DNA from: Candidatus Latescibacterota bacterium
Lineage (GTDB): Bacteria; Latescibacterota; UBA2968; UBA8231
Direction of reading: 5' to 3'
Assembly: GCA_965203175.1 (NCBI GenBank)
Contig: OZ241867.1
Location: 2,880,001 to 2,944,000 of the forward strand
DNA length: 64,000 nt
Shown here piece by piece: positions 3,376-43,894 of the stretch. Both the position numbers and the translations under genes were made by a program. Each line of letters begins with the position of its first letter. Within the stretch, counting starts at the first letter, position 1. Below the pieces are notes generated by a model that saw only the letters and a list, made by a program, of their open reading frames with translations, ran no database searches and was not told the DNA's origin.

Positions 3376-3376
3376 T

Positions 3377-6355: not shown

Positions 6356-6368
6356 ATAAATCCACGAC

Positions 6369-8111: not shown

Positions 8112-8119
8112 GAAAATCA

Positions 8120-8150
8120 TTGACAAATTATCTAATCCTTTTTTTGTTAG
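8120..8150 (+). promoter_or_regulatory. Putative sigma70 promoter (TTGACA -35) upstream of 8269
   Basis: Perfect TTGACA at 8120-8125 in an AT-rich intergenic region; -10 is degenerate. Confidence 0.4.
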
Positions 8151-8268
8151 TTGGCGGTTTTACACAGGGAGTGTTCGGCGGAAATGCTCTCAAGCTAAAG
8201 GCGGTCGCCAACAACACTAGGTGGTGACGCCGCTTTTTATTTTCAACCTTACATAGGAGGTTTCAGCA

Positions 8269-9232: not shown

Positions 9233-9268
9233 AGGGAGGGTAGAGTTGCTCTACTCTCCCTCTTTGTA
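9233..9268 (+). terminator. Rho-independent terminator-like hairpin
   Basis: AGGGAGGGTAGAG-ttg-CTCTACTCTCCCT followed by ctttgt. Confidence 0.65.
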
Positions 9269-9308
9269 TTATGATTCCTACATTCTACAAACCTTGGGGA
9301 TCGCGAGC

Positions 9309-11234
9309 ATGAAGAGGGGCTTATGGTTCTTGGCGCTTTGGGCGGTGGTAGGATGGAGTGGAGGCAGTGGTGCGCTGACCATTTACCGCATCGGCGCAGC
9401 GGATTTGCCTGCGCCCGAGTTGGACGTACCCTATCAATTTGTCCAGCTCGAGTGGAAGGCCATAAATGCTAAAGCGCACGGTAGCGCGGTGCAAATGGCG
9501 CTCGCCCCCGATGGGATCATCCCGCAGCAGCTAGACCCAGCAGTCAATCTGACGCCCCTTTTGAACGAACGCGGCGGCCGGATTGAGACCTTGCAGACAA
9601 TCGTCGGGTTCGCCGACTTCCCGGCCCGCGATGCACCGATGTTCGACGGCGACCCAACGACGCACTTTCTCGGCGATGGCGATTGGGGCGGAGACTACGG
9701 CCGGGTCAAAAACAAACTCCTGATCTTCGACTTGGGCGGCAACTTCATCGTCGATCGCATCAAGTTTTACCCCCGTGAACGCTTTCTCGACACTCGCTTC
9801 ATCGAGCGCTTCGTCATCGGCACCAGCGACGGCGATCCGCTCAAGAGGAATACGCGCGAGTACGTCGTCGGCGGCGAGGGTGGCCAGTTTCGCGATTACG
9901 ACTTGGTGTACAACATCACCGAAAACACGCAGTCGGTGATCGAACTGAGCATCCCGGATGTGCCTATCCGCCAACTCATGTTTGAAGCGCCGCCCAACAC
10001 CCGCGGCGTTTGGGAAATCGCCGAGTTTGAACTCTACGGTATCGGTTTCGCGCCCGCGAGCCAGTACACAACCAACGTCATCGACTTAGGCGGTATGGCG
10101 AGTTTGGGAGACCTAACGTGGTCGGGGGAGGCTGAGGGAGGAGCAGAGGTGGCGATAGCGATGCGCAGCGGCGATGACGACGATCCCCATTCCTATTGGC
10201 GCCTGACCTTTCGCGGTGACGAGCGCAGTCGCTTTGGTGCCGATGGCACCGCCCTGACGCTCAGCACGTACAAGCGATTGGAAAAAGGCGAAAAGGCCGG
10301 GATCACGCCTGACACCGAAAACTGGTCCGACTGGAGCCCGCCATACAACTTCGCCGCCGGAGGGGACGTGCTGCTCGCGGATAGACCGCGTCGTTACGTG
10401 CAGCTCAAGGCCGATTTCACTTCGCAAAAAGAAGCTGGTGGGCGCTTAGACTTTTTGCAGTTCAGCGTCTCGAACCCGCCGGTGGCGACGCAAGCCTTGG
10501 CCGAGCTCGCGCCGGCGAGCGCTCGCGCCGGCGAGGTGACGTCTTTTACGTATGCGATTCTGCCCCAACTGCGCGACGAGGATTTGGGGTTTGATACTAT
10601 TGAGATTGAGACCCCAGTCGAGGTTGCAAGCCTCGACGCGCTGCGGATCGATGGTCAAGAGGTCGGCTTTGACATTGTGCGCTCGGACGCGCGAGGATTC
10701 GCGTTGCGGATCCCGCGCATGGACCCGCAACAGACGGGCGAACTAATTGAGATTGACTTTGCGGTGGAAGTGTTCAAGTTCGGGACGGTGTTCACCGGGA
10801 GGATCTCCGACAGCGAGAAGCCCTTTGAGGTGCGGCAGGCTCTGACCGCTGGCAACGCCGATCCACTGGTGGATAGCAATACCCTGAGCGTGGGACTGGT
10901 AAACGTAGAGGAGAAGGCGGTCAACGCGCTCAAGCTGTCCTCGCCGGTGTTTACACCCAACGGCGACGGCATCAACGACGTTCTCGAGATTGAATACGAG
11001 TTGTTAAATCTCTTCGGCGCAGTGCCGGTGGAGCTGGAGCTATACGATCTATCGGGACGGCGGGTGGGGATGGTGCATCGGGGAACGGCGGCGAGCGGCC
11101 GATTCGCGCTGGCGTGGAACGGAGTGCTAGCGAATGGAACCGTGACAGTGCCGGGGCTGTATCTACTGCGATTAGAAGTTGACAGCGACCACGGTAAGGA
11201 AGCGCGTCAGCGCGTCATTGCCCTGGCCTATTGA
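9309..11234 (+). CDS. Family A secreted protein A1 (discoidin-like domain plus FlgD-Ig/CHU_C-like CTD)
   Basis: Start re-placed to ATG 9309, after the terminator; signal peptide then ALTIYRIG; IFDLGG..IKFYPR..WEIAEFELYG; FTPNGDGIND; ends IALAY. Confidence 0.8.
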   Translation: MKRGLWFLALWAVVGWSGGSGALTIYRIGAADLPAPELDVPYQFVQLEWKAINAKAHGSAVQMALAPDGIIPQQLDPAVNLTPLLNERGGRIETLQTIVGFADFPARDAPMFDGDPTTHFLGDGDWGGDYGRVKNKLLIFDLGGNFIVDRIKFYPRERFLDTRFIERFVIGTSDGDPLKRNTREYVVGGEGGQFRDYDLVYNITENTQSVIELSIPDVPIRQLMFEAPPNTRGVWEIAEFELYGIGFAPASQYTTNVIDLGGMASLGDLTWSGEAEGGAEVAIAMRSGDDDDPHSYWRLTFRGDERSRFGADGTALTLSTYKRLEKGEKAGITPDTENWSDWSPPYNFAAGGDVLLADRPRRYVQLKADFTSQKEAGGRLDFLQFSVSNPPVATQALAELAPASARAGEVTSFTYAILPQLRDEDLGFDTIEIETPVEVASLDALRIDGQEVGFDIVRSDARGFALRIPRMDPQQTGELIEIDFAVEVFKFGTVFTGRISDSEKPFEVRQALTAGNADPLVDSNTLSVGLVNVEEKAVNALKLSSPVFTPNGDGINDVLEIEYELLNLFGAVPVELELYDLSGRRVGMVHRGTAASGRFALAWNGVLANGTVTVPGLYLLRLEVDSDHGKEARQRVIALAY

Positions 11235-11236
11235 GG

Positions 11237-13177
11237 ATGAGAATGAGCCAGCTGAGGTACATAGTCGCATTGTGGACGGTGGGGTCGCTGGCGGTCGGAG
11301 CAGGCGATCTTAGTGCTCTAACGATATACCGAATCGGGGGTGTCGACCAACCCGCGCCGGAGTTGGCATCAGTTGAAGGGGTGGAGTTCGTGCAGATCGA
11401 TTGGGCCGATATCGACGAGGATTTGCACGGTAGTATCAACTTGCTAGAGGTGACTAGCAGTCACATCGAGCCGCGGCAACTCGACTCCACGGTCAATCTG
11501 ACACCGCTTTTGCCGCAGGCCGATTCTCTTGGTGATATCTTCTACCTGACTTGGATTGGCTGGGGGGGATTCAACGACGACGATGAGCTTATCTGGGACG
11601 AGGATCCCAATACGGCCTATCTGGGAGATGGTCGTTTTGCCTCGCATGGACCGAATACTAAAAACCTGATCTTCGATTTTGGCGGGCTGTTCTTTATCGA
11701 CCGGGTCAAGTTCTACCCGCGGCCTAGCTATATGACCGACCGCTTTGTCGAACGCTTCATTATCGGCACTAGCGACGGCGACCCGCTCAAGGACCCCAAT
11801 CGAGACCTTCAGGCCGGGTCGCGGGGCGATTATGTGGCCTTCGATGTGATTTACAATATCCGCGACAATACGCAGCCGATCATTGACTTGAAGATGCCCG
11901 ACGAGCCGATCCGCAAGTTGCTCTTCCGGGCACCGGAGAATACGCGGGGAATTTGGGAATTGGCCGAGTTGGAACTCTACGGTTCGGGTTTTGCGCCCTT
12001 CTCCAATTATACCAGTAGCATTATCGATTTGGGCAAGCCGGTGGCCTTGGGCGATTTGAGCTGGTCGGGCGAAGTCGATGCTGGTGCTCAGATCGACTTA
12101 GTGATGCGCAGCGGCGATGTGCCAGACCCGAGCATCTATTGGCGCTTCACCTTCCGCGGTGACGAGCAGAGTCGCTTTGACGCCAAGGGTCAGCCGCTTA
12201 CGGCGCGAGCCTACGATAGGCTCAATAAAGGCGAGAAGGCTGGGATCACGCCCGATACCCAGAACTGGGAGCTGTGGAGTCAGGCCTATGATTTTGTGGC
12301 CGGTTCGGGGGCGATGCAAGCTGACAGACCGCGGCGCTACGTACAGCTCAAAGCCGATATTACCGCGCGAAAGGACGCTGGCGGACGGCTGGACTTTTTA
12401 CAGTTTAGCGTCTCGGATCCGCCCGTGGCAACGCAAGTGTTAGCCGAGATTACGCCGCCGAGCGCCCAAGCTGGGGACGTCACCCAGTTTACCTATAGTA
12501 TTCTGCCGCAATTCGAGCGCGAAGATTTGGGATTTGACACCATCGAGATTGAGACGCCGGTCGAAGTGACCAGCATCGACGGCGTGCGAATCGCCGGCCA
12601 GGAAGTCGGTTTTGAGGTCGTGCGCTCGGACGCCGCTGGCTTTGCCCTCAAAATCCCAAGAATGGACGTGCAGCAAACCAGTGAACGGATCGAGGTGGAT
12701 TTCGCCGTGGAGGTGTTCAAGTTTGGGACGGTGTTCGCCGGCCGGATCTCCGATAGCGAAAAGCCCTTTGAGGTGCGGCAGGCATTAACCCCAGGCGATG
12801 CCAATCCGCTGACCGATAGCAATACCCTGAGCGTGGAGTTAGCCGAGGTAGGGGAGAAAGCGGTCAACGCGCTCAAGCTATCCTCATCGGTGTTTACGCC
12901 CAACGGCGATGGCATCAACGACGTCCTTGAGATTGAATACGAGTTGTTGAACCTTTTTGGTGCAGTGCCAGTGATGCTGGACTTATACGACTTGTCGGGG
13001 CGGTGGATCGGGGCGGTGGATCGAGGCACCGCGGCGAGCGGTCGGATTGCCCTGCACTGGGACGGGAGGTTAGCGGATGGGTCAGTGGCTGCACCGGGAT
13101 TGTATCTGCTACGGCTGAAAGTAGAAAGCGACCAACGCAAAGAAGCACGCCAGCGCGTTGTCGTTTTAGCCTACTGA
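11237..13177 (+). CDS. Family A secreted protein A2
   Basis: Same architecture as A1; start 11237 or 11243; ends VVLAY. Confidence 0.8.
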   Translation: MRMSQLRYIVALWTVGSLAVGAGDLSALTIYRIGGVDQPAPELASVEGVEFVQIDWADIDEDLHGSINLLEVTSSHIEPRQLDSTVNLTPLLPQADSLGDIFYLTWIGWGGFNDDDELIWDEDPNTAYLGDGRFASHGPNTKNLIFDFGGLFFIDRVKFYPRPSYMTDRFVERFIIGTSDGDPLKDPNRDLQAGSRGDYVAFDVIYNIRDNTQPIIDLKMPDEPIRKLLFRAPENTRGIWELAELELYGSGFAPFSNYTSSIIDLGKPVALGDLSWSGEVDAGAQIDLVMRSGDVPDPSIYWRFTFRGDEQSRFDAKGQPLTARAYDRLNKGEKAGITPDTQNWELWSQAYDFVAGSGAMQADRPRRYVQLKADITARKDAGGRLDFLQFSVSDPPVATQVLAEITPPSAQAGDVTQFTYSILPQFEREDLGFDTIEIETPVEVTSIDGVRIAGQEVGFEVVRSDAAGFALKIPRMDVQQTSERIEVDFAVEVFKFGTVFAGRISDSEKPFEVRQALTPGDANPLTDSNTLSVELAEVGEKAVNALKLSSSVFTPNGDGINDVLEIEYELLNLFGAVPVMLDLYDLSGRWIGAVDRGTAASGRIALHWDGRLADGSVAAPGLYLLRLKVESDQRKEARQRVVVLAY

Positions 13178-13180
13178 AAG

Positions 13181-15781
13181 ATGGGTATGCAGCGTATCAG
13201 CGTCGTATTAGTGCTTGGTTGGGCCGTGAGCGTCTCGGCCCAAGTCGGGCATCGGGTGACGGCGAGTCAGGTAGTAGTCAACAGCCGCGCCCACTGGCAG
13301 AACTGGAGTTTCCCACCGGGGGTGCTGGAACTAGGTGCCGACGGCTCAGTGCGGCCTCAGCACGTCCGCCGCGACATCAATGCGGTGCAAGATATCGTCG
13401 ATTACTTGCGCTTGCGCCCCCCGGAAAGAATCAAAAAAGACCCCGAAGACATTGTTCCACTCGATGCGGTACAGGGCGGGGCCACGGCAAATATCGCCGC
13501 GGTGCCCAACATTTTTGATGGAGATTTGACGACCTACTGGGAACCACTTGCGGCGAGCGAGGAGTCCGACCTCGCTTCGCAGTGGTGGTTCGTCGTTGAC
13601 TTGGGCCGGTTGGTGATCACTAAGAAGATCGTGCTCAAATTCGTCGCCGAGGATTTGGGAGACCCGTTCTTGCAGTTCGATGTGCTGGCCTCACAGGGCA
13701 ACAAGCCCAAGGGCAACCAGCGCTCGCCGCTGCCAGAGTTCAGCACTCTATTGCGCACCTTGCGGCCCAACAAGGAACAGCGCGTCTTCGAGATCGACAT
13801 GGACCAGTTGGGAGATGATTTTGTCGGCGCTGGTCTTCGCTTTGTGCAGATCGTGGTGACCGGCAGCGATTTCGACCGCGGCCGGGAGCTAAGCCAAGCC
13901 GAGTACGAGGCCCTGCCGGTAGGAGAGCAAGGGGCGATCGACTACTTCAAAAAACTCGCTGGGGGCCGCGAAACCTTAGTGGAGCAGAAGGTTTTTGAGC
14001 GTCTCGACGCCGACCGCCAAGGCGCGATCCGCTACTATCGCAAGGAGCGTCCGCGGCTGGCGGAGTTGGAGGTTCTGGCCGAGGGAGACGAGATCCTTTC
14101 CGAGATGCTGGAGCGCGGTGGTTCCGGCACGGCGACGCAGACGGCCTCAATCAGCAACATGATCGACGGAGAAATCGAAAGCAGGGTCCAATTTATCACC
14201 CGCTTTGGCCGGGGATCACTGAATTCCCCGGAGGGTGGGGTCTTGTTCGATTTGGGGGCCTTCTACTGGATCGATGCCTTCCGCATCGCCTACGCTGGCG
14301 CGGCCTTTCAAGCCTACCATCTAGATTTTTCCGACGGCAGCCTCGAAGCCGACGGCAGCCTCAAGTGGTCGGTCGCGGTCAATCGCACGGAAAACAGCGA
14401 CTATGGCAGCAGTCAGGGGTTGGGTTTCGGCCTCTACGAGGGCAACGACTTCGAGCGGATTAAGGCGCGCTTCTTTCACCTCGTCTGGAAGCAGTATGAG
14501 GCGGGCGGCGGCTTTGGCGGTGGTTCTGGTCAGCCAGCCGAGATTCAGCTCTACGGGCGGGGGTATCAGCCAGAAGTGACTTTGACATCCGACTTGGTGC
14601 GCTTGGGCGGCAGCCGCAACCTGTCCTCCATTGAGTGGGACGCTGATACGCCGCCGAGGACCAGCGTCGTGTTGCAAACTCGCACCGGCAACGAACTCGA
14701 CGAAGTGTTGCGCTACTTCAAAAAAGACGGTACTGAAGTCACCGAGGCCGAATACAACAAGCTGCTGTCGATTTTTCGCGGCGACACGGTTGGTGAGGAG
14801 GTCGCCGGTGGGGACTGGAGCGATTGGAGTGCGCCCTACGAAGACGCCAGCGGTAGCCCGATTACCTCACCTAGCCCGCGCGAATTTCTCGAGATCCGCG
14901 CGGTCCTGCTATCGGACGATCCAGAGGTCAGTGCAACGCTGCGCTCGATTCGGCTCAACTTCACCAACCCAGTCGCGCAAGAGCTCATCGGCGAAGTTGT
15001 TCCTTTCGAGGTCGAGAACCTCGGCGAGGAGCAGCGTTTTTCCTTTTACGTGCGCCCGGACTTCGCCCGCAGTGACCCCGGCTTCGATCAGTTGCTTTTG
15101 ATCGCTCCTACTGATATGAACCTGCGCTTCGAGGGTCTTTATGGCGGTACAGCAGCCGAACTAGCAGCCGGGGAGCCGGCTGGGACGGCTCTTGCTGCTG
15201 AGGTCGTGCCTACTTCGGGCGACAGCTTGCAGGTAGCGTTTTCGCCGCTGGGGCCTGACTCGGGGGTTGAGGTGATGCGGTTGGACTTTTCGACCGCGCT
15301 GTTTTCGACCGGAGCAGTGATGCAGGCGTCGTTGCAGAATAGTGCAGAGGGGGAGGGCGGCTGGCAGCGGGTGGATCCAGGAGAGGCCGTCGCGGAGGTG
15401 GTCAGCAATACGACGACGTTAGTGGGCAAAGTCGCGTCCGGATCTTTGGTGCAAGCGGTGTCGGTGGAGCCTGCGGCGTTTACACCTAACGGCGATGGCA
15501 TTAACGACGAGACTTCGTTCCGCTTTGCAGTGGTCAAGGTGGGCGATGACAGTCCGGTGGAGGTGCTCGTCTACGATCTGCAAGGGCGGCTGACAAGGCG
15601 GCTGGTCGAGCAGCGGGCGTTGAGCACGGGATCGTATGGGATCGCTTGGGATGGGCGGGATGAGCAGGGGGCGGTGGTGCCCCCGGGAGTCTATCTGGCG
15701 CGCGTGCGAGTCGATACGGACACCGAGGGTGCCCGCATTGGACGCGACGAAATTTTCCGCACCATCGCCGTTACCTATTAG
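13181..15781 (+). CDS. Family B secreted protein B1 (two discoidin-like domains plus FlgD-Ig/CHU_C-like CTD)
   Basis: Signal peptide; VVV..HWQNWSF; FDGDLTTYWEP..WWFVVDLGR; FDLGAFYWID..KARFF..EIQLYG; FTPNGDGIND; ends IAVTY. Confidence 0.8.
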   Translation: MGMQRISVVLVLGWAVSVSAQVGHRVTASQVVVNSRAHWQNWSFPPGVLELGADGSVRPQHVRRDINAVQDIVDYLRLRPPERIKKDPEDIVPLDAVQGGATANIAAVPNIFDGDLTTYWEPLAASEESDLASQWWFVVDLGRLVITKKIVLKFVAEDLGDPFLQFDVLASQGNKPKGNQRSPLPEFSTLLRTLRPNKEQRVFEIDMDQLGDDFVGAGLRFVQIVVTGSDFDRGRELSQAEYEALPVGEQGAIDYFKKLAGGRETLVEQKVFERLDADRQGAIRYYRKERPRLAELEVLAEGDEILSEMLERGGSGTATQTASISNMIDGEIESRVQFITRFGRGSLNSPEGGVLFDLGAFYWIDAFRIAYAGAAFQAYHLDFSDGSLEADGSLKWSVAVNRTENSDYGSSQGLGFGLYEGNDFERIKARFFHLVWKQYEAGGGFGGGSGQPAEIQLYGRGYQPEVTLTSDLVRLGGSRNLSSIEWDADTPPRTSVVLQTRTGNELDEVLRYFKKDGTEVTEAEYNKLLSIFRGDTVGEEVAGGDWSDWSAPYEDASGSPITSPSPREFLEIRAVLLSDDPEVSATLRSIRLNFTNPVAQELIGEVVPFEVENLGEEQRFSFYVRPDFARSDPGFDQLLLIAPTDMNLRFEGLYGGTAAELAAGEPAGTALAAEVVPTSGDSLQVAFSPLGPDSGVEVMRLDFSTALFSTGAVMQASLQNSAEGEGGWQRVDPGEAVAEVVSNTTTLVGKVASGSLVQAVSVEPAAFTPNGDGINDETSFRFAVVKVGDDSPVEVLVYDLQGRLTRRLVEQRALSTGSYGIAWDGRDEQGAVVPPGVYLARVRVDTDTEGARIGRDEIFRTIAVTY

Positions 15782-15791
15782 AGGGGCATTA

Positions 15792-18404
15792 ATGATGACT
15801 CGATCATTGGTCCTAGCCGTGCTGATCGCTGGCACTGCGTTTGCCCAATCGGGCTACCGGATCACTGGAGATCAAGTGGTGGTTGACCGGCGCACGCACT
15901 GGCAAAGTTGGAACTTTCCGCCGGGGGTGCTGGATCTGGGCAGCAGTGGGACGGTGCAACCCCGGAGCCTGCGACGCGATATCAACGCCGTCGGTGACAT
16001 CGTCGCCAACTTGCAAGCCCGTCCGCCGGACGGCCTGAAGAAAGACCCGGAAGATATCGTCCTCGCCGACGCCATCTTAGGAGGGGTCCGCTCCAATGTC
16101 GCGGGTGTAGAAAACCTCTTTGACGGGGATATGACGACTTATTGGGAGCCGGATTCGCCGACCGAGGAGTTGGATTTGGGCACGCAGTGGTGGTTTATCG
16201 TCGATCTGGGGCGTTTGGTGATGGCTAAGAAGCTGGTGCTCAGGTTCGTTTCCGAGGAGTTGGGCGATCCTTTCTTGCAGTTCGACCTGTTGGCTTCGCA
16301 GGGCAATATTCCCAAGGGCAACCAGCGTTCGCCTACGCCTGAGTTTACCACTATCCTGCGCACGTTAAAGCCCAACAAGAAGCAGCGGGTGTTCGAACTG
16401 GTCACCAATTCGGAGCCGACCTTTGCTGGAACGGGTATGCGCTTTGTGCAGATCATCATTACCGGTAGTGACTTTGATCGCGGACGAGAGGTGAGTCCGG
16501 CTCAATACGAGGCTTTGCCGGCGGATGATCAGGGGGCGATTGAGTTTTACAAGAAGCAGGTTGATGGCAGCGAGACGGTGGTGTCGCCGGAGATTTACGA
16601 GTTGCTGACATCCGCGCAGCAAGGGCCGATTCGCTACTTCCAGCGGGAGCGTCCACGATTGGCGGAATTGGAGGTTTGGGCTGAAGGCGACGAGATCCTG
16701 ACGGGGACGTTGGCACGGGGGGGATATGGTACGGCGACGCAGACGGCGGCGATCAACAACTTGATTGACGGTCAGATCGAGAGCAAGGTTCAATTTCTCT
16801 ATTCTTTTGGTCGCGGTTCGTTCAAAGATCCAGAGGGCATTGTCTTTTTTGACTTGGGAGCCTTTTACTGGATCGATGCTTTTCGCATGGCCTACGGTGG
16901 CTCGCCATTTAAGGACTATCGGCTCGACTTTTCCGACGGCAGCCTCGAAGCGGACGGCACCCTCAAGTGGACTACTACGGGGACGCGCCAGACCTCCGCC
17001 CCTACCGCGGTGGGGTCGAAGTGGGAAAGCGAGACTAATCTCAGATTCGGAACCTATGAGGGTAACGATTTCGAGCGGGTAAAAGCGCGCTTCTTTCGCT
17101 TGGTGTGGGAGCAGGTCGAAAGCGCCACAGCCCGCGGCGGAGCCACCGGCCAGCCGTCGGAGATCCAGCTTTACGGCCAGGGGTATCACCCAGAGGTGGC
17201 GCTGACCTCCAATTTGATCCGCTTGGGCGGCAGTCGCAACCTGCTGTCGATTGAGTGGGACGCTGATACGCCGCCGGGCACCAGTGTCGTGTTGCAGACC
17301 CGCACCGGCAACGAACTCGACGAGGTGCTGCGCTACTTCAAAAAAGACGGTACTGAAGTCACCGAGGCCGAATACAATAAGCTGCTGTCGATTTTCCGCG
17401 GCGACACGGTCGGCGAGGAGGTCGCTGGTGGGGACTGGAGCGACTGGAGTGCGCCCTATGAAGACGCCAGCGGCAGTCCGATTACCTCGCCTAGCCCGCG
17501 GGCGTACTTGGAGGTGCGGGCGGTGCTGCGGTCGGACACACCTGATTACAGTGCGACGCTGCGGTCGATTCGCTTGAATTTTACCAATCCGGTCGCACAG
17601 GGGCTGTCTGGCGAAGTGACTCCCTTTGCGGTGGAGCAGTTGGGGCAGCCGCAGCGATTTTCGCTCTATGTGCGCCCAGAGTTTGCCGCAGGCGATCCGG
17701 GGTTTGATCAGTTGTTAGTAGTCGCCCCGTCGGATATGCGTTTGGCTTTTGAGGGGGTATATGGCGGTCCGGCGGCGTCACTGGCTGCTGACGTAGGAGC
17801 CGATTGGGCGTTGGACGGAGCAGAGGTTGTGCCTACCGCTGGCGATAGTTTGCAGGTAGCGTTTTCGGAGATAAATCCATCTTCGGGGGTTGAGGTGGTG
17901 CGGTTGGATTTTTCGACGGCTTTGTTTTCGACCGGAGCAGTGATGCTGGCGTCATTGCAGAACAGTGCGGAGGGCGAGGGCGGCTGGCAGCGGGTGGACC
18001 CGGGCGAGGCGGTCGCGGAGGTGGTCAGCAATACGACGACGCTGGTAGGCAAAGTCGCGTCTGGGCCTTTGGTGCAAGCAGTGTCGGTGGTGCCCTCGGT
18101 GTTTACGCCCAATGGTGATGGCATTAACGATGAGGCATCGTTCCGCTTTACGGTGGTCAAGGTGGGCGATGACAGTCCGGTGGAGGTGCTCATCTACGAT
18201 CTGCAAGGACGGCTGGTGCGGCGGCTGGTCGAGCGGCGGGCGTTGAGTACGGGATCGTATGGGGTCGCTTGGGACGGACGCGACGAACAGGGCGAAGTCG
18301 CTCCACCGGGGGTCTATCTAGCGCGGCTGCGCGTGGACACCGATACTGAGGGATCCCAAATAGGCAATGCCGAGATTTTCCGCACCATCGCCGTTGCCTA
18401 CTAG
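15792..18404 (+). CDS. Family B secreted protein B2
   Basis: Start re-placed to ATG 15792 (RBS gagggg); near-identical to B3 over long stretches; ends IAVAY. Confidence 0.8.
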   Translation: MMTRSLVLAVLIAGTAFAQSGYRITGDQVVVDRRTHWQSWNFPPGVLDLGSSGTVQPRSLRRDINAVGDIVANLQARPPDGLKKDPEDIVLADAILGGVRSNVAGVENLFDGDMTTYWEPDSPTEELDLGTQWWFIVDLGRLVMAKKLVLRFVSEELGDPFLQFDLLASQGNIPKGNQRSPTPEFTTILRTLKPNKKQRVFELVTNSEPTFAGTGMRFVQIIITGSDFDRGREVSPAQYEALPADDQGAIEFYKKQVDGSETVVSPEIYELLTSAQQGPIRYFQRERPRLAELEVWAEGDEILTGTLARGGYGTATQTAAINNLIDGQIESKVQFLYSFGRGSFKDPEGIVFFDLGAFYWIDAFRMAYGGSPFKDYRLDFSDGSLEADGTLKWTTTGTRQTSAPTAVGSKWESETNLRFGTYEGNDFERVKARFFRLVWEQVESATARGGATGQPSEIQLYGQGYHPEVALTSNLIRLGGSRNLLSIEWDADTPPGTSVVLQTRTGNELDEVLRYFKKDGTEVTEAEYNKLLSIFRGDTVGEEVAGGDWSDWSAPYEDASGSPITSPSPRAYLEVRAVLRSDTPDYSATLRSIRLNFTNPVAQGLSGEVTPFAVEQLGQPQRFSLYVRPEFAAGDPGFDQLLVVAPSDMRLAFEGVYGGPAASLAADVGADWALDGAEVVPTAGDSLQVAFSEINPSSGVEVVRLDFSTALFSTGAVMLASLQNSAEGEGGWQRVDPGEAVAEVVSNTTTLVGKVASGPLVQAVSVVPSVFTPNGDGINDEASFRFTVVKVGDDSPVEVLIYDLQGRLVRRLVERRALSTGSYGVAWDGRDEQGEVAPPGVYLARLRVDTDTEGSQIGNAEIFRTIAVAY

Positions 18405-18413
18405 AGGGCATTA

Positions 18414-21020
18414 ATGATGCATCGATTATTGATCCTAGCCGTGCTGATCGCTGGCACTGCGTTTGCCCAATCGGGCTACCGGATCACTGGAGATCAAGTG
18501 GTGGTTGACCGGCGCACGCACTGGCAAAGCTGGAACTTTCCACCGGGGGTGCTAGATCTGGGCAGCAGCGGGACGGTGCAACCTCGAAGTCTGCGGCGCG
18601 ATATCAACGCCGTCGGTGACATCGTCGCCAACTTGCGAGCCCGTCCGCCGGATGGCCTGAAGAAAGAGCCAGAAGACATCGTCCTCGCCGATGCCATCTT
18701 AGGGGGTGCCCGCTCCAATGTCGCAGGCGTAGAAAACCTCTTAGACGGGGATATGACGACTTATTGGGAGCCGGATTCGCCGACCGAGGAGTTGGATTTG
18801 GGCACGCAGTGGTGGTTTATCGTCGATCTGGGGCGTTTGGTGATGGCTAAGAAGCTGGTGCTCAGGTTCGTTCCTGAGGAGTTGGGCGATCCTTTCTTGC
18901 AGTTCGACCTGTTGGTCTCACAGGGCAATATTCCCAAGGGCAACCAGCGTTCGCCTACGCCCGAGTTTACCACCATCCTGCGCACGTTAAAGCCCAACAA
19001 GAAGCAGCGGGTGTTCGAGTTGGTCACCAATTCGGAGCCGACCTTTGCTGGAACGGGTATGCGCTTTGTGCAGATCATCATTACCGGTAGTGACTTTGAT
19101 CGCGGACGAGAGGTGAGTCCGGCTCAATACGAGGCTTTGCCGGCGGATGATCAGGGGGCGATTGAGTTTTACAAGAAGCAGGTTGATGGCAGCGAGACGG
19201 TGGTGTCGCCGGAGATTTACGAGTTGCTAACATCCGCGCAGCAAGGGCCAATCCGCTACTACCGCAAGGAGCGTCCCCGGTTGGCGGAATTGGAGGTTTG
19301 GGCAGAGGGCGACGAGATTCTGACGGGGACGTTGGCTCGGGGGGGGTATGGCACGGCGACGCAGACGGCGGCGATCAACAACTTGATTGACGGTCAGATC
19401 GAGAGCAAGGTTCAGTTTATCTATTCTTTTGGTCGCGGCTCGTTCAAAGATCCAGAGGGCATTGTCTTTTTTGACTTGGGAGCCTTTTACTGGATCGACG
19501 CGTTTCGTCTAGCTTACGGCGGCTCGACGTTTAGGGACTACCGGCTCGACTTTTCCGACGGCAGCCTTGAAGCAGACGGCAGCCTTAAGTGGGTCACCGG
19601 AGGGACGCGCGTACCGACTCAGGATGTCACGGCCTCTGCCGGCCGCGTGACCAACCTCGGTTTCGGGGTGTACGAGGGTAACGATTTCGAGCGGATAAAA
19701 GCGCGCTTCTTTCGCTTGGTGTGGGAGCAGTATGAAAGCGCCACAGCCCGCGGCGGAGCCACCGGCCAACCAGCCGAGATCCAGCTCTACGGTCAGGGGT
19801 ATCACCCCGAGGTAGCGCTGACCTCCAATTTGATCCGCTTGGGCGGCAGTCGCAACCTGCTGTCGATTGCCTGGGATGCCGACACGCCGCCGGGCACCAG
19901 CGTCGTGTTGCAGACCCGCACCGGCAACGAACTCGACGAAGTGTTGCGCTACTTCAAAAAGGACGGCACCGAAGTCACCGAGGACGAATACAACAAGCTG
20001 CTGTCGATTTTCCGCGGCGACACCATCGGTGAAGAGGTTGCTGGTGGAGATTGGAGCGACTGGAGTGCGCCCTACGAAGACGCCAGCGGCAGTCCGATTA
20101 CTTCACCCTCACCGCGGGCGTACTTGGAGGTGCGGGCGGTGTTGCGGTCGGACACGCCCGATTACAGTGCGACGCTGCGGTCGCTGCGGTTGCATTTTGC
20201 CAATCCGGTTGCGCAGGGACTATCGGGCGAAGTAACCCCCTTTGCAGTAGAGCAGTTGGGGCAGCCGCAGCGGTTTTCGCTTTATGTGCGTCCCCAGTTT
20301 GCCGCTGGTGATCCGGGATTTGATCAGTTGTTAGTGGTAGCCCCGTCGGATATGCGTTTGGCGTTTGAAGGGGTGTATGGCGGTCCAGCGTCGGCCTTAG
20401 CTGCTGAGGTAGGCACCGATTGGGCGTTGGATGGAGCAGAGGTCGTGCCTACTGCTAGTGATAGTTTGCAGGTGGCGTTTTCGGCGATAGGTCCCTCCTC
20501 GGAAGTTGAGGTGGTGCGGCTGGACTTTTCAACGGCTTTGTTTTCGACGGGAGCGGTATTGCAGGCGTCGCTGCAGAATAGTATGAAGGGAGAGGGGGGG
20601 TGGCAGCGGGTGGATCCAGGCGAGGCAGTGGAAGCTATTGCCAGTAACACGACGACGCTGGTGGGGGCGGTGCAAGAGGGTGCCTTAGTGCAGGCGGTGG
20701 AAGTGGAGCCGAGCGTGGTTACGCCCAATGGCGACGGGGTCAACGACGAGATGGGGTTTCACTTCCAGGTAGTCAAGGTGGACGGAGCTAGTCCGGTGGA
20801 GTTGTTGATCCACGATGTGCAAGGACGGCGAGTGCGGCGCTTAGTCGAGCAGCGTCCGACGAGCACGGGGGTCTACGGGATGGAGTGGGACGGTCGGGAT
20901 GAGCAGGGGGTGGTGGTGCCCCCGGGAGTCTATCTGGCGCGAGTGCGAGTAGATACGGACACCGAGGGTGCCCGCATTGGACGCGCCGAAATTCTACGCA
21001 CCATTGCCGTTGCCTATTAG
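18414..21020 (+). CDS. Family B secreted protein B3
   Basis: Tandem duplicate of B2 including the RBS/start region; ends IAVAY. Confidence 0.8.
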   Translation: MMHRLLILAVLIAGTAFAQSGYRITGDQVVVDRRTHWQSWNFPPGVLDLGSSGTVQPRSLRRDINAVGDIVANLRARPPDGLKKEPEDIVLADAILGGARSNVAGVENLLDGDMTTYWEPDSPTEELDLGTQWWFIVDLGRLVMAKKLVLRFVPEELGDPFLQFDLLVSQGNIPKGNQRSPTPEFTTILRTLKPNKKQRVFELVTNSEPTFAGTGMRFVQIIITGSDFDRGREVSPAQYEALPADDQGAIEFYKKQVDGSETVVSPEIYELLTSAQQGPIRYYRKERPRLAELEVWAEGDEILTGTLARGGYGTATQTAAINNLIDGQIESKVQFIYSFGRGSFKDPEGIVFFDLGAFYWIDAFRLAYGGSTFRDYRLDFSDGSLEADGSLKWVTGGTRVPTQDVTASAGRVTNLGFGVYEGNDFERIKARFFRLVWEQYESATARGGATGQPAEIQLYGQGYHPEVALTSNLIRLGGSRNLLSIAWDADTPPGTSVVLQTRTGNELDEVLRYFKKDGTEVTEDEYNKLLSIFRGDTIGEEVAGGDWSDWSAPYEDASGSPITSPSPRAYLEVRAVLRSDTPDYSATLRSLRLHFANPVAQGLSGEVTPFAVEQLGQPQRFSLYVRPQFAAGDPGFDQLLVVAPSDMRLAFEGVYGGPASALAAEVGTDWALDGAEVVPTASDSLQVAFSAIGPSSEVEVVRLDFSTALFSTGAVLQASLQNSMKGEGGWQRVDPGEAVEAIASNTTTLVGAVQEGALVQAVEVEPSVVTPNGDGVNDEMGFHFQVVKVDGASPVELLIHDVQGRRVRRLVEQRPTSTGVYGMEWDGRDEQGVVVPPGVYLARVRVDTDTEGARIGRAEILRTIAVAY

Positions 21021-21048
21021 CGCTTCTCCTCTCAGCGGAGAGAGTACT

Positions 21049-23010
21049 ATGCGGGTATCGCTGATTCTGCTGGCCCTTGGTTTCCTTTGGAGCCAAGCGT
21101 CGGCGTTGACGATTTATCGGATCGGTGGGCAGAGCCTGCCGCCGCCGGAATTGGACGCGCCCTACGAATTCGTGTCGTTGGCTTGGGCCGATGCCGACGA
21201 AGCCCTCGACGGTCAGATCAAGTTGGTCGAAGTAGAAACCGACTTCATTCATCCGCAGCGCCTAGATCCTGCCGTCAACATCGCACCGCAGATCTACGAC
21301 TTGGACGGCGGCACCGTGTTCGTCATGCATTCGCACACTGGCTGGACCGAGAACTTAGAGGACGACGATCACTTCATCTTTGATGGCGATCCCGAAACGG
21401 TCTATCTGGGCGATGGCCATTGGCCGTGGGGGGCCATTTTCTTTGGCAGACGCTCCCTCGATGAGGGTTGGGGCAAGGGACGATGGATCTACACCAAGGT
21501 CTGGATCTTCGACCTCGGCGGCCTATTCACCCTGCAGCGCATTCGACTTTTCCCCCGCGAAAAGTTTGTCAACGAGCGCTTTATCCAGCGATTCAGAGTC
21601 GGCACCAGCGATGGCGATCCCCTCAAGGACGGCACCCGCGATCACGCGATCACGCATCGGGGCTTTTTTTTCGACTTCGATATCGCCTATGACATCAAGG
21701 AAAACTCGAGTGGGGTGTTGGAACTGGCGATGCCCTCCGAGCCGGTCCAGCGTCTGCTGCTCGATGCCCCAGAAAACTCAAGAGGGATCTGGGAGCTAGC
21801 TGAGTTCGAGATATACGGGTTTGGCTTTGCCAACGAGGCCACCTACCGCTCGAACATCATTGATCTCGGTGAGGCGGTTGCACTGGGTCCCATAATTTGG
21901 TCGGGAAGGCAAGATCCAGAGGCCGCAGTCGAATTGCGTACGCGCAGCGGTGACAGCGCCGACCCGAACAACTACTGGCGCTTCACGTTCAGGGGCGACG
22001 AGAAGTCACTCTTCGACCAGCAAGGGAAGCCCCTCACCCGGCGGAGTTACGCCAAACTCAACAAGGGAGAGAAGGCCGGGATTACCTATGATACCCGCAA
22101 CTGGGACTCGTGGAGTCCGGCCTACGACTTCAGCGCCGGGGTGGGCGATATACAGGCGAACAAACCGCGTCGCTACGTCCAGTTCAGCGTTGACTTCTAC
22201 TCGGTCCGCGACCAGGGCAGTCAACTCGACTACGTGCAGTTTGCGGTGTCGGACCCGCCAATTGCGACCCAAGCCCTAGCGGAAATCACCCCAGGCGCGG
22301 TGCGGGCAGGCGAGCCAGCGGCATTTACCTATGTGTTGACTCCAATGTTTAGCCCCCGAGATTTGGGCTTCGATTCGATTGAAATCGATACTCCGAGCCT
22401 CCCCGGCGGGGTGGATGCGGTGCGGATCAGCGGCGAGGAGGTGGGGTTTGAGATCCGGCGGCTGGACGAACGCGGCTTTGAATTGGGGATTCCCCGGATC
22501 GACGCGACGCGAACCGGCGAGCGGATCGAGGTCGATTTCCGCGCCGAAGTCTTCCAGTTTGGGACGCTTTTTACCGGGCGGGTTTTCGATAGCGAGAAAC
22601 CACACGAGGTGCGGCAGGCGCTGACGGCCGGTGATGCGGACCCGCTCATAGAGGGCGATCGCTTGAGCGTAGATATTCTGGATTTGGCCCAAAAGAGCAT
22701 CAAAGGGTTGCGCGTGCAGGCCGGCGTTTTTACCCCCAACGGCGACGGGATTAACGATGTGGTCTCGATCGAGTGCGACTTGCTGAACGTAGAGGCCGCA
22801 CCCGTGGCGATCCAGATATTTGATTTGGCGGGGCGCGAGATCGACCAGATCGACGGCGGTGAGCAAGTCAGCGGGCGGTTCACCGCAGCGTGGGACGGGC
22901 GCGATGTCGATGGGAGACTTGCGCCGCCGGGAACGTATCTGCTGCAGCTCACCGTAGAGACGGACGAAGGGGTTGATCGGGCACAACGAGTTGTCGGCAT
23001 GGCTTATTAA
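21049..23010 (+). CDS. Family A secreted protein A3
   Basis: Start re-placed to ATG 21049; ALTIYRIGG; long aromatic loop insertion; ends VGMAY. Confidence 0.8.
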   Translation: MRVSLILLALGFLWSQASALTIYRIGGQSLPPPELDAPYEFVSLAWADADEALDGQIKLVEVETDFIHPQRLDPAVNIAPQIYDLDGGTVFVMHSHTGWTENLEDDDHFIFDGDPETVYLGDGHWPWGAIFFGRRSLDEGWGKGRWIYTKVWIFDLGGLFTLQRIRLFPREKFVNERFIQRFRVGTSDGDPLKDGTRDHAITHRGFFFDFDIAYDIKENSSGVLELAMPSEPVQRLLLDAPENSRGIWELAEFEIYGFGFANEATYRSNIIDLGEAVALGPIIWSGRQDPEAAVELRTRSGDSADPNNYWRFTFRGDEKSLFDQQGKPLTRRSYAKLNKGEKAGITYDTRNWDSWSPAYDFSAGVGDIQANKPRRYVQFSVDFYSVRDQGSQLDYVQFAVSDPPIATQALAEITPGAVRAGEPAAFTYVLTPMFSPRDLGFDSIEIDTPSLPGGVDAVRISGEEVGFEIRRLDERGFELGIPRIDATRTGERIEVDFRAEVFQFGTLFTGRVFDSEKPHEVRQALTAGDADPLIEGDRLSVDILDLAQKSIKGLRVQAGVFTPNGDGINDVVSIECDLLNVEAAPVAIQIFDLAGREIDQIDGGEQVSGRFTAAWDGRDVDGRLAPPGTYLLQLTVETDEGVDRAQRVVGMAY

Positions 23011-23174: not shown

Positions 23175-24143
23175 ATGAGCAGACCCGTATGTCTGGTTTC
23201 TGGTTCGAGCAGTGGAATTGGCACGGCTGTTGTGGCCGCCTTCGCCGCCAATGGCTACGACGTGGTGGTGCACTACAATTCCGGCAGCGATCCCTCCGAC
23301 CCCCGTGCGCATAAAAGCTCCGGCGAGGAGCGGGCGGCCGCGGTGGCCAACAAACTGCGGACGGAGCACGGGGTGGAGGCGCTGAGTTTGGGTGCCGATT
23401 TGAGCCGGCCCGAAGCCCCTTTCGACCTAGTGGATCGGGCCTACGCGCATTTCGGCCGTCTCGATACCGTTGTCAGCAACAGCGGCGTGACCAACTACGT
23501 GCGCGGCGCAGACGGGCAGATTGCGCGCTACCGCTTCACCGAGACGCCGGTCGATCATCTTGAACAGGAGTTGGACCGGGTCCTCAGCGTCAATCTCAAA
23601 GGGGCCTACCGCCTGTGTCAGCGCGCGCTCAAACGCATGATCGAGCAGGCCGAAAACGAGCGGCGGGCCGGGCAAGAAGTCCCGCACCGCAGCTTTCTGT
23701 TTATCGCTACGGTATCGGATGTGGCGCCCGACAGCACGCGCATCCCCTACGGGGTGAGCAAGGCCGGGCTCAACCACGTGGTCCTAGGGGCCGCCTTTGA
23801 TGCGGGACAGCACAATATTACCGTCAACGCCCTGCGTCCAGGGGTGGTGGAGACGCCGCTGACGTCGCGTCCTTCTGGCATCGTCGATCCGGAGACCGAC
23901 CAGCAGTATACCGTGGCTGAAACCTACGGTCTGATGGCCGAGGGGGGCTCGCAGGCGCTGCCGCGCATCGGCCAGCCCGAAGATATCGCCGGTGCTGCCT
24001 TCGCCTTCACCCAAATCCCCTATATGACCGGTCAGTTGATCGCGGTGGACGGGGGATTCACGTTGGTCAATGGCTTTCCCAACCGCGAACTGTTCCTGCA
24101 GGAGGGCATGCGGCGACGACAGGAGAGCAAACAAGGAGATTGA
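23175..24143 (+). CDS. SDR family NAD(P)-dependent oxidoreductase
   Basis: SGSSSGIG nucleotide-binding motif, YGVSK catalytic motif, VNALRPG and TGQLIAVDGG. Confidence 0.85.
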   Translation: MSRPVCLVSGSSSGIGTAVVAAFAANGYDVVVHYNSGSDPSDPRAHKSSGEERAAAVANKLRTEHGVEALSLGADLSRPEAPFDLVDRAYAHFGRLDTVVSNSGVTNYVRGADGQIARYRFTETPVDHLEQELDRVLSVNLKGAYRLCQRALKRMIEQAENERRAGQEVPHRSFLFIATVSDVAPDSTRIPYGVSKAGLNHVVLGAAFDAGQHNITVNALRPGVVETPLTSRPSGIVDPETDQQYTVAETYGLMAEGGSQALPRIGQPEDIAGAAFAFTQIPYMTGQLIAVDGGFTLVNGFPNRELFLQEGMRRRQESKQGD

Positions 24144-24144
24144 C

Positions 24145-24528
24145 ATGGCCCATGACGAAGCAGCAGCGGTAATCGCAGCAGCGAAAATCGCCACCGCCGC
24201 GTATTGCGCCGGCGATATAGACGCCTTTCTGCCGTATATCCACCCCCAACGCACTACCTTTGGACCCGACGGCAGTCGTCTGGCGGCTTTCGACGCTAAA
24301 GCGCTGCGGGCCGGCATGGCCGCAGGCCGTGTCCAGGCGCAGGTGGAATGGCGGGATCTCCAAGCCACCGTACATGGCGATGTCGCGGTCAGTACGGGGT
24401 ATCTGGTCGGCACTTGGACCATCGGCGACAGCGTCGAGGAAGGTACCTGGCGCGAAACCATCGTCTGGCTCAAGCAGGACCAGCGCTGGCAGGTTTCCCA
24501 TTTGCATGTATCCGCGTGTCTGACCTGA
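24145..24528 (+). CDS. NTF2/SnoaL-like (DUF4440-type) protein
   Basis: RBS aaggag and ATG 24145; VHGDVAV..R.T.VW.K..RWQVSHLH.S pattern. Confidence 0.7.
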   Translation: MAHDEAAAVIAAAKIATAAYCAGDIDAFLPYIHPQRTTFGPDGSRLAAFDAKALRAGMAAGRVQAQVEWRDLQATVHGDVAVSTGYLVGTWTIGDSVEEGTWRETIVWLKQDQRWQVSHLHVSACLT

Positions 24529-24561
24529 GAAGGCTGAACCAAGAAGCGAACGGAGGTCAAA

Positions 24562-25344: not shown

Positions 25345-25365
25345 GCGTTATACAAGGAGCAGACA

Positions 25366-26613: not shown

Positions 26614-26647
26614 AGATTTATTATACGGGGAGCAAGGAGACGCAACC

Positions 26648-27901: not shown

Positions 27902-29848
27902 ATGTACCAACGCCTCAGAGATTCCTTAGCTGTATGGTGCGGGTTTTTGCTGTTCATTGTCGGCCCTCTCGACGCGCTGACAATCTACCGGCTCGGGGGT
28001 AGCGATTTGCCGGCTCCAGAGTTAGCGGCGCTTGAGGGGGTGGAATTCGTGCAACTAGCGTGGGCCGACGTAGCTGAAGATCGGCACGGCCAGACCGACC
28101 TAATCGAAGTAACCCCCAATCACATCGCACCGCGCCAACTCGACCCGACGGTCAACCTGACGCCGCTGTTGCCCCAGCCCGATTTCCTCGGGGATATTTT
28201 CTATCTGACTTGGATTGGCTGGGGTGGTCCCGATGTCGATGACTGGTTTATCTGGGACGAGGATCCCAATACGGTCTATCTGGGCGATGGGCACTTCGCG
28301 ATGCATGGGCCCAAACACAAAAGTCTGATTTTCGACCTCGGCGGCCTGTTTTTTCTCGAGCGAATCAAGTTCTACCCCCGCGAAAGACATCGGCACGACC
28401 GCTTCGTGGAGAGCTTTACCATTGGCATCAGTGACGGCGATCCGTTCAAAGATCCCCATCGAGAGCTACAGGCTGGAGTGGGGGGATTCGGCAGGGGGTC
28501 TGTCGTCGCCTTTGACGTGCTCTACGACATCAGGGAAAACACCGAGCCTATCATTGAGTTAGAGTTGCCAGCGCAACCTGTACAGAAGGTACTCTTTCGA
28601 GCAGCGGAGAATACGCGGGGCATCTGGGAGCTGGCCGAACTTGAACTCTACGGCGCGGGTTTTGCCCCCTTTGCTGGCTACCAAAGCAATGTCATTGATC
28701 TAGGCCGAGCGGTGTCGCTGGGCGATCTGAGCTGGTCGGGTGTGGTCGAGCCGGGTGCCCGCGTTGCCTTGACTATGCGCAGCGGCGCTACGCCGACGCC
28801 CAACATCTACTGGCGCTTCACCTTTCGCGGCGATGAGCAAAGTCGCTTCGATACCCAGGGCCGGGTGTTGACGCGCAAAGCCTATAACAAGCTCAACAAG
28901 GGCGAGCGGGCCGGGATCACGCCCGATACTCAGCAGTGGGAAGCTTGGAGCCAGGCGTACGATTTCGCGGACAGTACGGGGGCGATGCAGGCGAACCAGC
29001 CTAGGCGCTACGTGCAACTGCGCGCCGACTTTGAATCGCTCAAGGAGGCGGGCGGGCGGCTGGACTATGTACAGTTCAGCGTCTCGGACCCGCCGGTGGC
29101 CACCCAAGTGCTAGCCGAGATCTCTCCGGCGCAGGTCAAAGCGGGCGAGGTGACTTCCTTTACCTATGCGGTATTGCCTCAATTCGAAGAGGACGATTTG
29201 GGATTTGACACCATTGAGATTGAGACGCCCGTGCAGGTGAGGGAGGTTGACGCGGTGCGCATTAGCGAGATGGAGGTAGGCTTTGACGTCCTGCGCTCGG
29301 ACGCGGAGGGCTTTGCCCTGCGCATCCCGCGCATGGACTTGCAGCGCACCGAAGAACTGGTTGAGGTGGATTTTCAGGTGGAAGTGTTCAAGTTCGGCAC
29401 GATGTTCACCGGCCGGGTATCGGACAGCGAAAGGCCCTTTGAGGTGCATCAGCGGCTCACCGCAGGCGACGCCGATCCGCTAGTCGAGGGCAACACGCTG
29501 AACGTAGGTTTGGTCGAAGTGGAACACAAGGCAGCCAACGCGCTCAGACTAGCCTCGCCCGTGTTTACGCCCAATGGCGACGGAGTCAACGACGAGTTGC
29601 AGATCGAATACGAGCTGTTGAATCTCTTGGGAGCGGTACCAGTGGCATTGGATCTGTACGATTTGTCGGGCCATCGCTTGGGAGCAGTGTATCGCGGTAC
29701 AGCGCAGAGCGGCCGATTTCGCTTGGAGTGGGATGGGGTGTTGGCAAGTGGGGAACGGGCAGTGCCGGGGTGCTACTTGTTGCGCCTAGCGGTGACTAGC
29801 GACCGAGGTGGAGAAATCCTCCAGCGCGTCATCGCGCTGGCTTATTAG
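27902..29848 (+). CDS. Family A secreted protein A4
   Basis: Closest to A2 (LGDIFYLTWIGWGG); ends IALAY. Confidence 0.8.
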   Translation: MYQRLRDSLAVWCGFLLFIVGPLDALTIYRLGGSDLPAPELAALEGVEFVQLAWADVAEDRHGQTDLIEVTPNHIAPRQLDPTVNLTPLLPQPDFLGDIFYLTWIGWGGPDVDDWFIWDEDPNTVYLGDGHFAMHGPKHKSLIFDLGGLFFLERIKFYPRERHRHDRFVESFTIGISDGDPFKDPHRELQAGVGGFGRGSVVAFDVLYDIRENTEPIIELELPAQPVQKVLFRAAENTRGIWELAELELYGAGFAPFAGYQSNVIDLGRAVSLGDLSWSGVVEPGARVALTMRSGATPTPNIYWRFTFRGDEQSRFDTQGRVLTRKAYNKLNKGERAGITPDTQQWEAWSQAYDFADSTGAMQANQPRRYVQLRADFESLKEAGGRLDYVQFSVSDPPVATQVLAEISPAQVKAGEVTSFTYAVLPQFEEDDLGFDTIEIETPVQVREVDAVRISEMEVGFDVLRSDAEGFALRIPRMDLQRTEELVEVDFQVEVFKFGTMFTGRVSDSERPFEVHQRLTAGDADPLVEGNTLNVGLVEVEHKAANALRLASPVFTPNGDGVNDELQIEYELLNLLGAVPVALDLYDLSGHRLGAVYRGTAQSGRFRLEWDGVLASGERAVPGCYLLRLAVTSDRGGEILQRVIALAY

Positions 29849-34855: not shown

Positions 34856-34894
34856 GGGGTGGAAATAAATTGGCGGGAAAATTCCTCGCAAGGG

Positions 34895-42380: not shown

Positions 42381-42383
42381 TTC

Positions 42384-43892: not shown

Positions 43893-43894
43893 TT

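Follow-up and report, generated by a model that had tools for sequence, protein, structure and literature searches.

That apical loops vary around a conserved core is textbook knowledge for the CBM32 family, and gene-conversion mosaics with regions that escape conversion are likewise well known; in bacteria, comparable cases are provided by babA and babB, which encode adhesins of Helicobacter pylori, and by the Neisseria opa genes. In PMC5291390, the apex loops of solved CBM32s are described as variable in length and sequence, as forming the sugar site and as differing between sister modules, and the abstract of PMC2720389 defines concerted evolution by paralogues that are more alike than orthologues. 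Here, we analysed four paralogous genes, B1 to B4, in a 64-kb stretch of the genome of a Candidatus Latescibacterota bacterium (assembly GCA_965203175.1, contig OZ241867.1, positions 2,880,001 to 2,944,000, hereafter the window, to which the analysis of this genome was confined). The B2 and B3 genes are very similar except for a patch of about 85 nt within the second domain of the encoded proteins, which the initial annotation, made from the DNA alone, had described as a hypervariable, CDR-like (complementarity-determining region-like) loop. We propose instead, with a probability of about 0.72, that the B proteins are a CBM32-like paralogue family in which a single ancient and stable loop, putatively determining specificity, lies within genes that are otherwise homogenised by gene conversion.

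The contrast between B2 and B3 itself was borne out. The two genes share an overall nucleotide identity of 0.872, and all four B open reading frames (ORFs) are intact. Calculated per 20-codon window, the B2/B3 identity is 0.83-1.00 in alignment columns 1-400, drops to 0.46, with indels, in columns 401-420, which hold the patch, and is 0.80-0.95 in columns 421-720. The 20-codon segment that holds the patch has the lowest identity in all six paralogue pairs (0.27-0.46), and the patch position and peptides had been given correctly (B2 residues 394-421, TTTGTRQT...NLRFGT, at 16971-17054 and B3 residues 394-419 at 19593-19670). The C-terminal 150 codons of B2 and B3 also diverge (columns 721-870, identity 0.57-0.80) and are a second, separate recombination feature.

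Several lines of evidence indicate that the similarity of B2 and B3 results from gene conversion. First, the flanks are less diverged between the paralogues than between orthologues. Over amino acids (aa) 20-290, the synonymous divergence (dS) between B2 and B3 of the window is 0.167, compared to 0.39 between B2 and its orthologue in the related locus L032 and 0.44-0.48 between B3 and its orthologues. At the protein level (aa 20-393), B2 and B3 of the window are 96.3% identical and the B2 and B3 proteins of one other genome (P0019 and L015) 96.5%, whereas orthologous pairs are 93-96% identical. Second, B2 and B3 of the window are sisters in a DNA tree of codons 20-393 (Shimodaira-Hasegawa-like approximate likelihood ratio test, SH-aLRT, 100), and approximately unbiased (AU) tests on the flanks rejected both a clade of B3 orthologues (p=0.0003, log-likelihood difference 77) and a clade of B2 orthologues (p=0.0003). 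Third, the genes are mosaics. The informative sites of B1, B2 and B3 fall into 222 runs, whereas 2000 shuffles gave 396 on average and never fewer than 364, and the tracts in which two of the three paralogues agree change along the gene (Table 1). In the C-terminal sorting-domain region (aa 716-870), B1 and B2 are 88% identical and B2 and B3 only 74%, and in the last ~30 codons B1 groups with B3. A B2-type loop is joined to a B3-type C-terminus in three database proteins (P0036, P0038 and P0040). Together with the mixed C-terminal tracts, this pairing indicates that the loop and C-terminal halves re-assort between lineages. We conclude that these genes undergo concerted evolution by gene conversion and that one old island escapes it.

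The age of this island can be read from its synonymous sites. In the window, the B2-B3 patch has a dS of 1.9, a non-synonymous divergence (dN) of 0.55 and a dN/dS ratio (omega) of 0.29, with indels, and in every combination of genomes the patch dS is saturated (1.2-2.9; omega 0.18-0.42); the patch is therefore old. The sharp contrast between B2 and B3 thus arises because the flanks were homogenised by conversion and not because the loop changes faster.

The loop is also stable between genomes. The 27-residue core of the B2 loop is identical letter for letter in 34 of the 120 relatives listed by a search with B2, and the full-length proteins among these carriers are 92-96% identical to B2 overall. 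When 30 full-length B2 orthologues were compared, leaving aside the divergent P0031-33, amino acid diversity was 0.032 in the patch and 0.047 elsewhere. Among the database cluster representatives, P0037 (81 members) is the only one with a B3-type loop, which in L015 and L011 is conserved at 96% and 93% identity, respectively. L032 and P0046 have a B1-type loop without any difference (100% identity), and L013 has a B4-type loop at an identity of 0.90. At the DNA level, where the orthologue comparisons cover three to four other genomes and about 29 codons, synonymous and non-synonymous differences in the patch number 7 and 1 between B3 of the window and L015, 5 and 2 between B3 and L011, 3 and 1 between B2 and L032, and 1 and 0 between B1 and L032, giving totals of about 16 synonymous and 4 non-synonymous changes. 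In the three comparisons with a non-synonymous change, the patch omega is 0.05-0.14, within the range of the flanks (0.02-0.18). Each paralogue thus keeps its own loop under purifying selection. Instead of a repertoire, the family has only a handful of discrete loop types, each belonging to one paralogue. The terms 'hypervariable' and 'CDR-like' are not supported for loop variants that are fixed across dozens of strain-level relatives and in other species and are as constrained as the framework. A different picture was seen in one pair of loci elsewhere in the family. L006:12704-13249 and L007:17365-17868, which occupy corresponding positions in different genomes, are 91% identical in the domain-2 framework and 24% identical in the patch loops, with a length difference of 11 residues, which indicates that sudden remodelling of the loop occasionally takes place.

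What kind of domain carries the loop? Domain 2 had been called discoidin-like. Pfam gave no discoidin match, and we therefore assigned this domain by fold and profile searches, which agree with that label. Two AlphaFold2 models of B2, one of the full-length protein (predicted local distance difference test, pLDDT, 83.5; predicted template modelling score, pTM, 0.69) and one of the domain only (pLDDT 85.0, pTM 0.82), both predict a beta-sandwich. A Foldseek search of the Protein Data Bank (PDB) with the domain 2 model returned 189 matches with an E-value of at most 0.001, and CBM32 modules are at the top of the list (4lks, 4lqr, 2v72, 2w1q, 4a41 and 4zz5; probability 1.0, TMt 0.58-0.75). Similarly, a profile of 67 domain-2 sequences, taken from the window and 60-odd related loci, matched the PDB sequences 2j1a/2j7m, a CBM32 of Clostridium perfringens GH84C, with an E-value of 1.8e-5 and 1eut and 2bzd, the galactose-binding domain of a bacterial sialidase, with an E-value of 1e-4. 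The discoidin label (CBM32/F5-8 type C) is thus correct for domain 2 at the superfamily level. The only Pfam match of the isolated domain, to CR4_N with an E-value of 0.15, is at chance level. With the whole B2 model, Foldseek returned only multi-domain matches of low TM score (galactose oxidase, neuropilin b1b2, factor Va and ZmpB CBM32-1/2), which are consistent with two discoidin-like domains without being decisive. For domain 1, Pfam gave a weak match to F5/8 type C at about residues 105-172 of each B protein, with 20-26 bits (25.8 bits as the domain 1 score) compared to a gathering cut-off of 28.2. By inspection, the N-termini resemble Sec signal peptides (e.g. ...AGTAFA-QS). The last ~100 residues match the Pfam families FlgD_ig (PF13860, 33-34 bits) and, in B2, CHU_C (PF13585, 28.4 bits), with a cut-off of 27, and the matches to the NCBIfam models for type A and B tails of the type IX secretion system (T9SS), TIGR04131 and TIGR04183, are weak and score below their cut-offs.

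In the models of B2, the patch corresponds to a long loop between strands 394-399 and 421-429. The segment from the LKW motif to the GNxF motif comprises 30 residues in B2, the longest in the family (median 17, range 15-30). The initial annotation had named four variable loops, which follow the motifs (I/F)DG, WIDAFR, LKW and ARFFxxVW. This is correct for B1-B4 and for the family, as the mean entropy of these loops is 2.4-2.9 bits among the 67 domain-2 sequences, compared to 1.0-1.4 bits for three of the five loops or turns at the opposite end of the sandwich and 2.1-2.4 bits for the other two. It does not apply to the B2/B3 pair, in which only the LKW loop differs strongly and the other three are identical at 19 of 20, 5 of 7 and 13 of 14 positions. 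According to the strand order of the models, the four loops would share one end of the sandwich, the one facing away from the C-terminus, so that the proposed clustering on one face receives qualified support. Accordingly placed, the LKW loop would sit at the apical end, where the CBM32 fold binds its ligand, and its most likely role would therefore be to set a paralogue-specific ligand preference, probably for a glycan. This makes the LKW loop the best candidate for a functional difference among the probably co-transcribed paralogues.

Based on these findings, we propose the following model. B1-B4 are tandem paralogues that encode exported and probably cell surface-located proteins, found mainly in Latescibacterota-type genomes. 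Each protein is predicted to present two CBM32/discoidin-like domains on a beta-rich stalk, preceded by a signal peptide and followed by a C-terminal T9SS-like sorting domain. Conversion between neighbouring copies keeps overwriting B2 and B3, while the ~85-nt patch, as an old and paralogue-specific loop, has been spared from homogenisation, with purifying selection holding each paralogue's own version. The apical loops of domain 2, above all residues 394-423, may differ between the paralogues to set their ligand preference, and the probably co-transcribed copies would then supply a small, fixed panel of specificities and not a diversifying repertoire. The earlier proposal of a diversified binding repertoire on a fixed scaffold can therefore be retained in part: the beta-sandwich is conserved and the loops differ between the paralogues, whereas the loop types are few and fixed, and neither diversifying machinery, among the 38 ORFs scanned with Pfam, nor a template repeat was found in the window.

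A number of observations weigh against this model. When the divergent P0031-33 are included, giving 33 full-length B2 orthologues, the amino acid diversity of the patch rises to 0.076 (83rd percentile of 29-aa windows), compared to 0.048 elsewhere, and the patch is then somewhat more diverse than an average window. The set of orthologous DNA comparisons given above is small, and the indels in the paralogue alignment of the patch inflate both dS and dN. The pairing of B2 and B3 in the DNA tree has a bootstrap value of only 70, next to an SH-aLRT of 100. With regard to the structure, Pfam gave no F5_F8_type_C match (PF00754/PF22633) for B2 residues 286-468 even at an E-value of up to 1, the tip of the B2 loop has a pLDDT below 50 in both models (aa 403-417 in the full-length model), and the common end of the four loops was deduced from strand parity in the DSSP strings alone and not from model coordinates. 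Lastly, escape from conversion could be mechanical, as a highly diverged segment blocks heteroduplex formation and selection against overwriting is not required.

This last point leads to the main rival explanation, according to which the patch is a functionless, tolerant surface loop that diverged long ago and now mechanically blocks conversion tracts, the contrast between B2 and B3 being a by-product. The low model confidence in the loop, its wide range of lengths in the family (15-30 residues) and the 11-residue indel between L006 and L007, which are an orthologue-level pair with a 91% identical framework, all agree with such a scenario. However, synonymous changes outnumber non-synonymous ones in the orthologous patches (about 16 versus 4), omega is as low as that of the framework, and the B2 core remained identical in the 34 relatives despite differences of 4-8% in the remainder of the protein; these findings speak against a functionless loop. 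Neutral mechanical escape is thus weakened by the low omega of the loop, and we consider it unlikely.

If the loop is indeed an old specificity determinant, one might speculate that selection actively shields it from conversion, such that the scaffolds evolve in concert while the private apical loops are conserved across species. We regard this extension as tentative, and would lean slightly against it at present. If it were true, shielded loops together with the occasional re-assortment of loop and C-terminus, as seen in P0036, P0038 and P0040, would provide a modular way of keeping several ligand specificities, and the operon would encode a fixed panel of lectin-like surface proteins in a little-studied phylum, built from a protein family without a characterised member.

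Alternatively, B2 and B3 could stem from a recent duplication, after which a burst of positive selection affected only the loop. The low dS of the flanks (0.17-0.46) and the high dN of the patch (0.55), with its indels, would be expected in this case. However, the synonymous sites of the patch are saturated as well (dS 1.9) and its omega of 0.29 is below 1. In addition, the two loop types already occur in other genomes, in which the flanks have diverged as much as or more than those of the paralogues, and the rejection of the orthologue clades for the flanks by the AU tests is a signature of conversion and not of a single duplication. We therefore consider this scenario improbable and largely refuted.

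Active, targeted diversification of the loop by a diversity-generating retroelement (DGR), cassette switching or another form of hypermutation is even harder to maintain. In its favour, the divergence forms a sharp island within a domain of a binding type, and the mosaics demonstrate that recombination moves segments between the copies. Nonetheless, no reverse transcriptase (RVT) family was detected among the 38 of 43 ORFs of at least 250 aa in the window that were scanned with Pfam, and the earlier statement that the window lacks a reverse transcriptase holds to that extent. A blastn-short search of the window with the four patches returned self-matches plus matches of 10-15 nt with E-values of at least 0.003, and thus neither a template repeat nor a second copy of a patch. 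Furthermore, the variable region of a DGR differs between close strains, whereas here the loop sequences are fixed across strains and species, the B2 core being identical in 34 of the 120 relatives listed and the B3 loop being 93-96% identical. The patch is also part of a CBM32-like fold in the central region of the protein, rather than of a variable region of the C-type-lectin or Ig type at the C-terminus. We thus see very little room for active diversification. The companion statement that no recombinase is present in the window was not strictly correct: the ORF at 49910-51028, ~30 kb from the patch, matches an IS1 DDE transposase (E-value 1.3e-6). It is overlapped fully by an antisense ORF at 49874-50977 and belongs to a segment of low GC content (48001-51028; 0.475 at 48-50 kb compared to about 0.6 elsewhere) that is probably the remnant of an insertion sequence. 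Finally, tandem repeats of ~2.6 kb with 87% identity are hard for short-read assemblers, and false mosaics could result from collapsed or chimerically joined copies, but the B1-B2 order recurs in L032, B3 is followed by a family A gene in both L011 and L015, the B2- and B3-type proteins P0001 and P0037 are encoded on one 5.98-Mb contig and all four ORFs are intact, so that we attach almost no weight to an assembly artefact. We hence retain the model of an old, stable loop within conversion-homogenised genes.

The B genes are part of a larger array (Table 1). Two related gene families are encoded on the plus strand, family B with four members of ~867 aa and family A with proteins of ~650-680 aa. 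They are distant paralogues with a common C-terminal part of ~410 aa (28% identity, E-value 3e-36). B1, B2 and B3 are spaced by only 10 nt and are therefore probably co-transcribed. As listed, the B2 ORF begins at position 15636; we placed the likely start at the ATG at 15792, 10 nt past the B1 stop codon, because this agrees with the N-terminus of B3 and with the 870-aa database orthologues (P0001 has 870 aa). The B2 frame can be read 52 codons further upstream (15636-15791), overlapping the 3' end of B1 in another frame, and comparable 'extensions' are found upstream of B copies in L011, L015 and L032. The simplest explanation for them is that the conserved sequence coding for the C-terminus of the preceding paralogue is read out of frame. 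Genes of family A adjoin B genes in related loci as well, for example in L001, L004, L010 and L032. In A3, an insertion of ~17 residues (about 21440-21500) is present in the loop that follows a DGDPxT motif, a length change comparable to that of the B patch.

Table 1. Positions of the B and A genes, domain 2, loops and conversion tracts in the window
Feature	Position	Strand	Description	Basis
B1	13181..15781	+	866 aa; predicted signal peptide, two discoidin/CBM32-like domains, beta-rich middle, C-terminal FlgD_ig/CHU_C (T9SS-like) domain	ORF list, Pfam, alignment
B2	15792..18404	+	870 aa	ORF list, alignment, database orthologues
B3	18414..21020	+	868 aa	ORF list, Pfam, alignment
B4	29863..32466	+	867 aa; most divergent paralogue, 59-61% aa identity to B1-B3	Pfam, alignment
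A1	9246..11234	+	family A; with A2 directly upstream of B1	
A2	11231..13177	+	family A; with A1 directly upstream of B1	
A3	20968..23010	+	family A; directly downstream of B3	
A4	27902..29848	+	family A; directly upstream of B4	
B2 domain 2	16662..17189	+	aa 291-466; predicted CBM32/F5-8 type C-like beta-sandwich	AlphaFold2, Foldseek, profile search
B2 loop after IDG	16773..16841	+	aa 328-350; variable in the family, nearly identical in B2 and B3; putative apical end	
B2 loop after WIDAFR	16887..16916	+	aa 366-375; putative apical end	
B2-type loop	16971..17060	+	aa 394-423; island of old divergence	
B2 loop after ARFFxxVW	17109..17159	+	aa 440-456; putative apical end	
B3-type loop	19593..19676	+	aa 394-421	
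B1-type loop	14369..14440	+	aa 397-420	
B4-type loop	31051..31119	+	aa 397-419	
Tract B2=B3 against B1	15792..17920	+	loop island excepted	informative sites, dS 0.17-0.46
Tract B1=B2 against B3	17922..18281	+		78 sites vs 17
Tract B1=B3, B2 odd one out	18282..18371	+		25 sites vs 1 and 0

The surroundings of the array are as follows. Upstream (553-9195), ORFs of 940, 1013 and 308 aa without a Pfam or NCBIfam match and a 580-aa tetratricopeptide repeat (TPR) protein are encoded, and the genes for the 1013-aa and TPR proteins are syntenic in L032. The two A/B arrays are separated by a four-gene block (23175-27805) coding for a short-chain dehydrogenase, a xylose-isomerase-like TIM barrel protein, a Gfo/Idh/MocA oxidoreductase and a Meth_synt_2-like protein, a combination that is typical of sugar or cyclitol metabolism. 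The region 3' of B4 (32469-44854) is rich in glycan-related functions. It codes for FG-GAP/ASPIC-UnbV repeat proteins (32469-34058, 34895-36580 on the minus strand and 37846-39657), an FGE-sulfatase family protein (34052-34891, minus strand), a GT87 glycosyltransferase (36569-37891) and a sugar-type ABC transporter (41367-44854).

The family is widespread, with 604 proteins at an E-value of at most 0.001 and 401 encoding stretches in genome contigs. The nearest relatives are metagenome-assembled genome records labelled Candidatus Latescibacterota and some labelled Gemmatimonadetes/Gemmatimonadota. A literature search, judged by title or abstract, found no paper describing the B protein family, and one on concerted evolution yielded general papers only. 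Our analysis provides a first account of the structure and evolution of this widespread, unnamed family of exported Latescibacterota proteins.

How does this locus compare with the known systems? The C-terminus of the B proteins resembles that of T9SS cargo proteins with a C-terminal sorting domain in its FlgD_ig/CHU_C match, whereas the B tails stay below the NCBIfam T9SS cut-offs, and an export route by way of this system is a prediction from the protein sequences. The DGR target proteins, from which the 'CDR-like' analogy originates, likewise present a short variable stretch on a scaffold of a ligand-binding type. They differ from the B proteins in fold and in the position of the variable stretch, and in the window no reverse transcriptase (38 ORFs scanned with Pfam) or template repeat was found and the loop is constant between strains. 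In comparison to babA/babB and opa, the divergent island of the B genes is confined to one loop of ~28 residues, does not change between strains and has no apparent use in antigenic or phase variation.

The closest parallels are found elsewhere. Like the CBM32 modules, for example the several CBM32s of the C. perfringens enzymes GH31, GH84C and GH89, domain 2 of the B proteins is predicted to adopt a beta-sandwich fold with a conserved core and with loops of variable length and sequence that would be located at one end. Unlike these modules, domain 2 has no Pfam match and domain 1 scores below the cut-off, the B proteins contain no catalytic module, and the variants are separate, probably co-transcribed polypeptides with a T9SS-like tail and not modules of one enzyme. 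With concerted evolution in which one region escapes, the B genes share flanks that are more alike between paralogues than between orthologues, mosaic tracts and one old divergent island. A sharp island between near-identical paralogues can resemble programmed hypervariability, and here it is the reverse, a stable and old loop between recently homogenised flanks. The new part is modest: an uncharacterised but widespread Latescibacterota family in which the variable loops of the CBM32 fold and the escape from gene conversion are combined.

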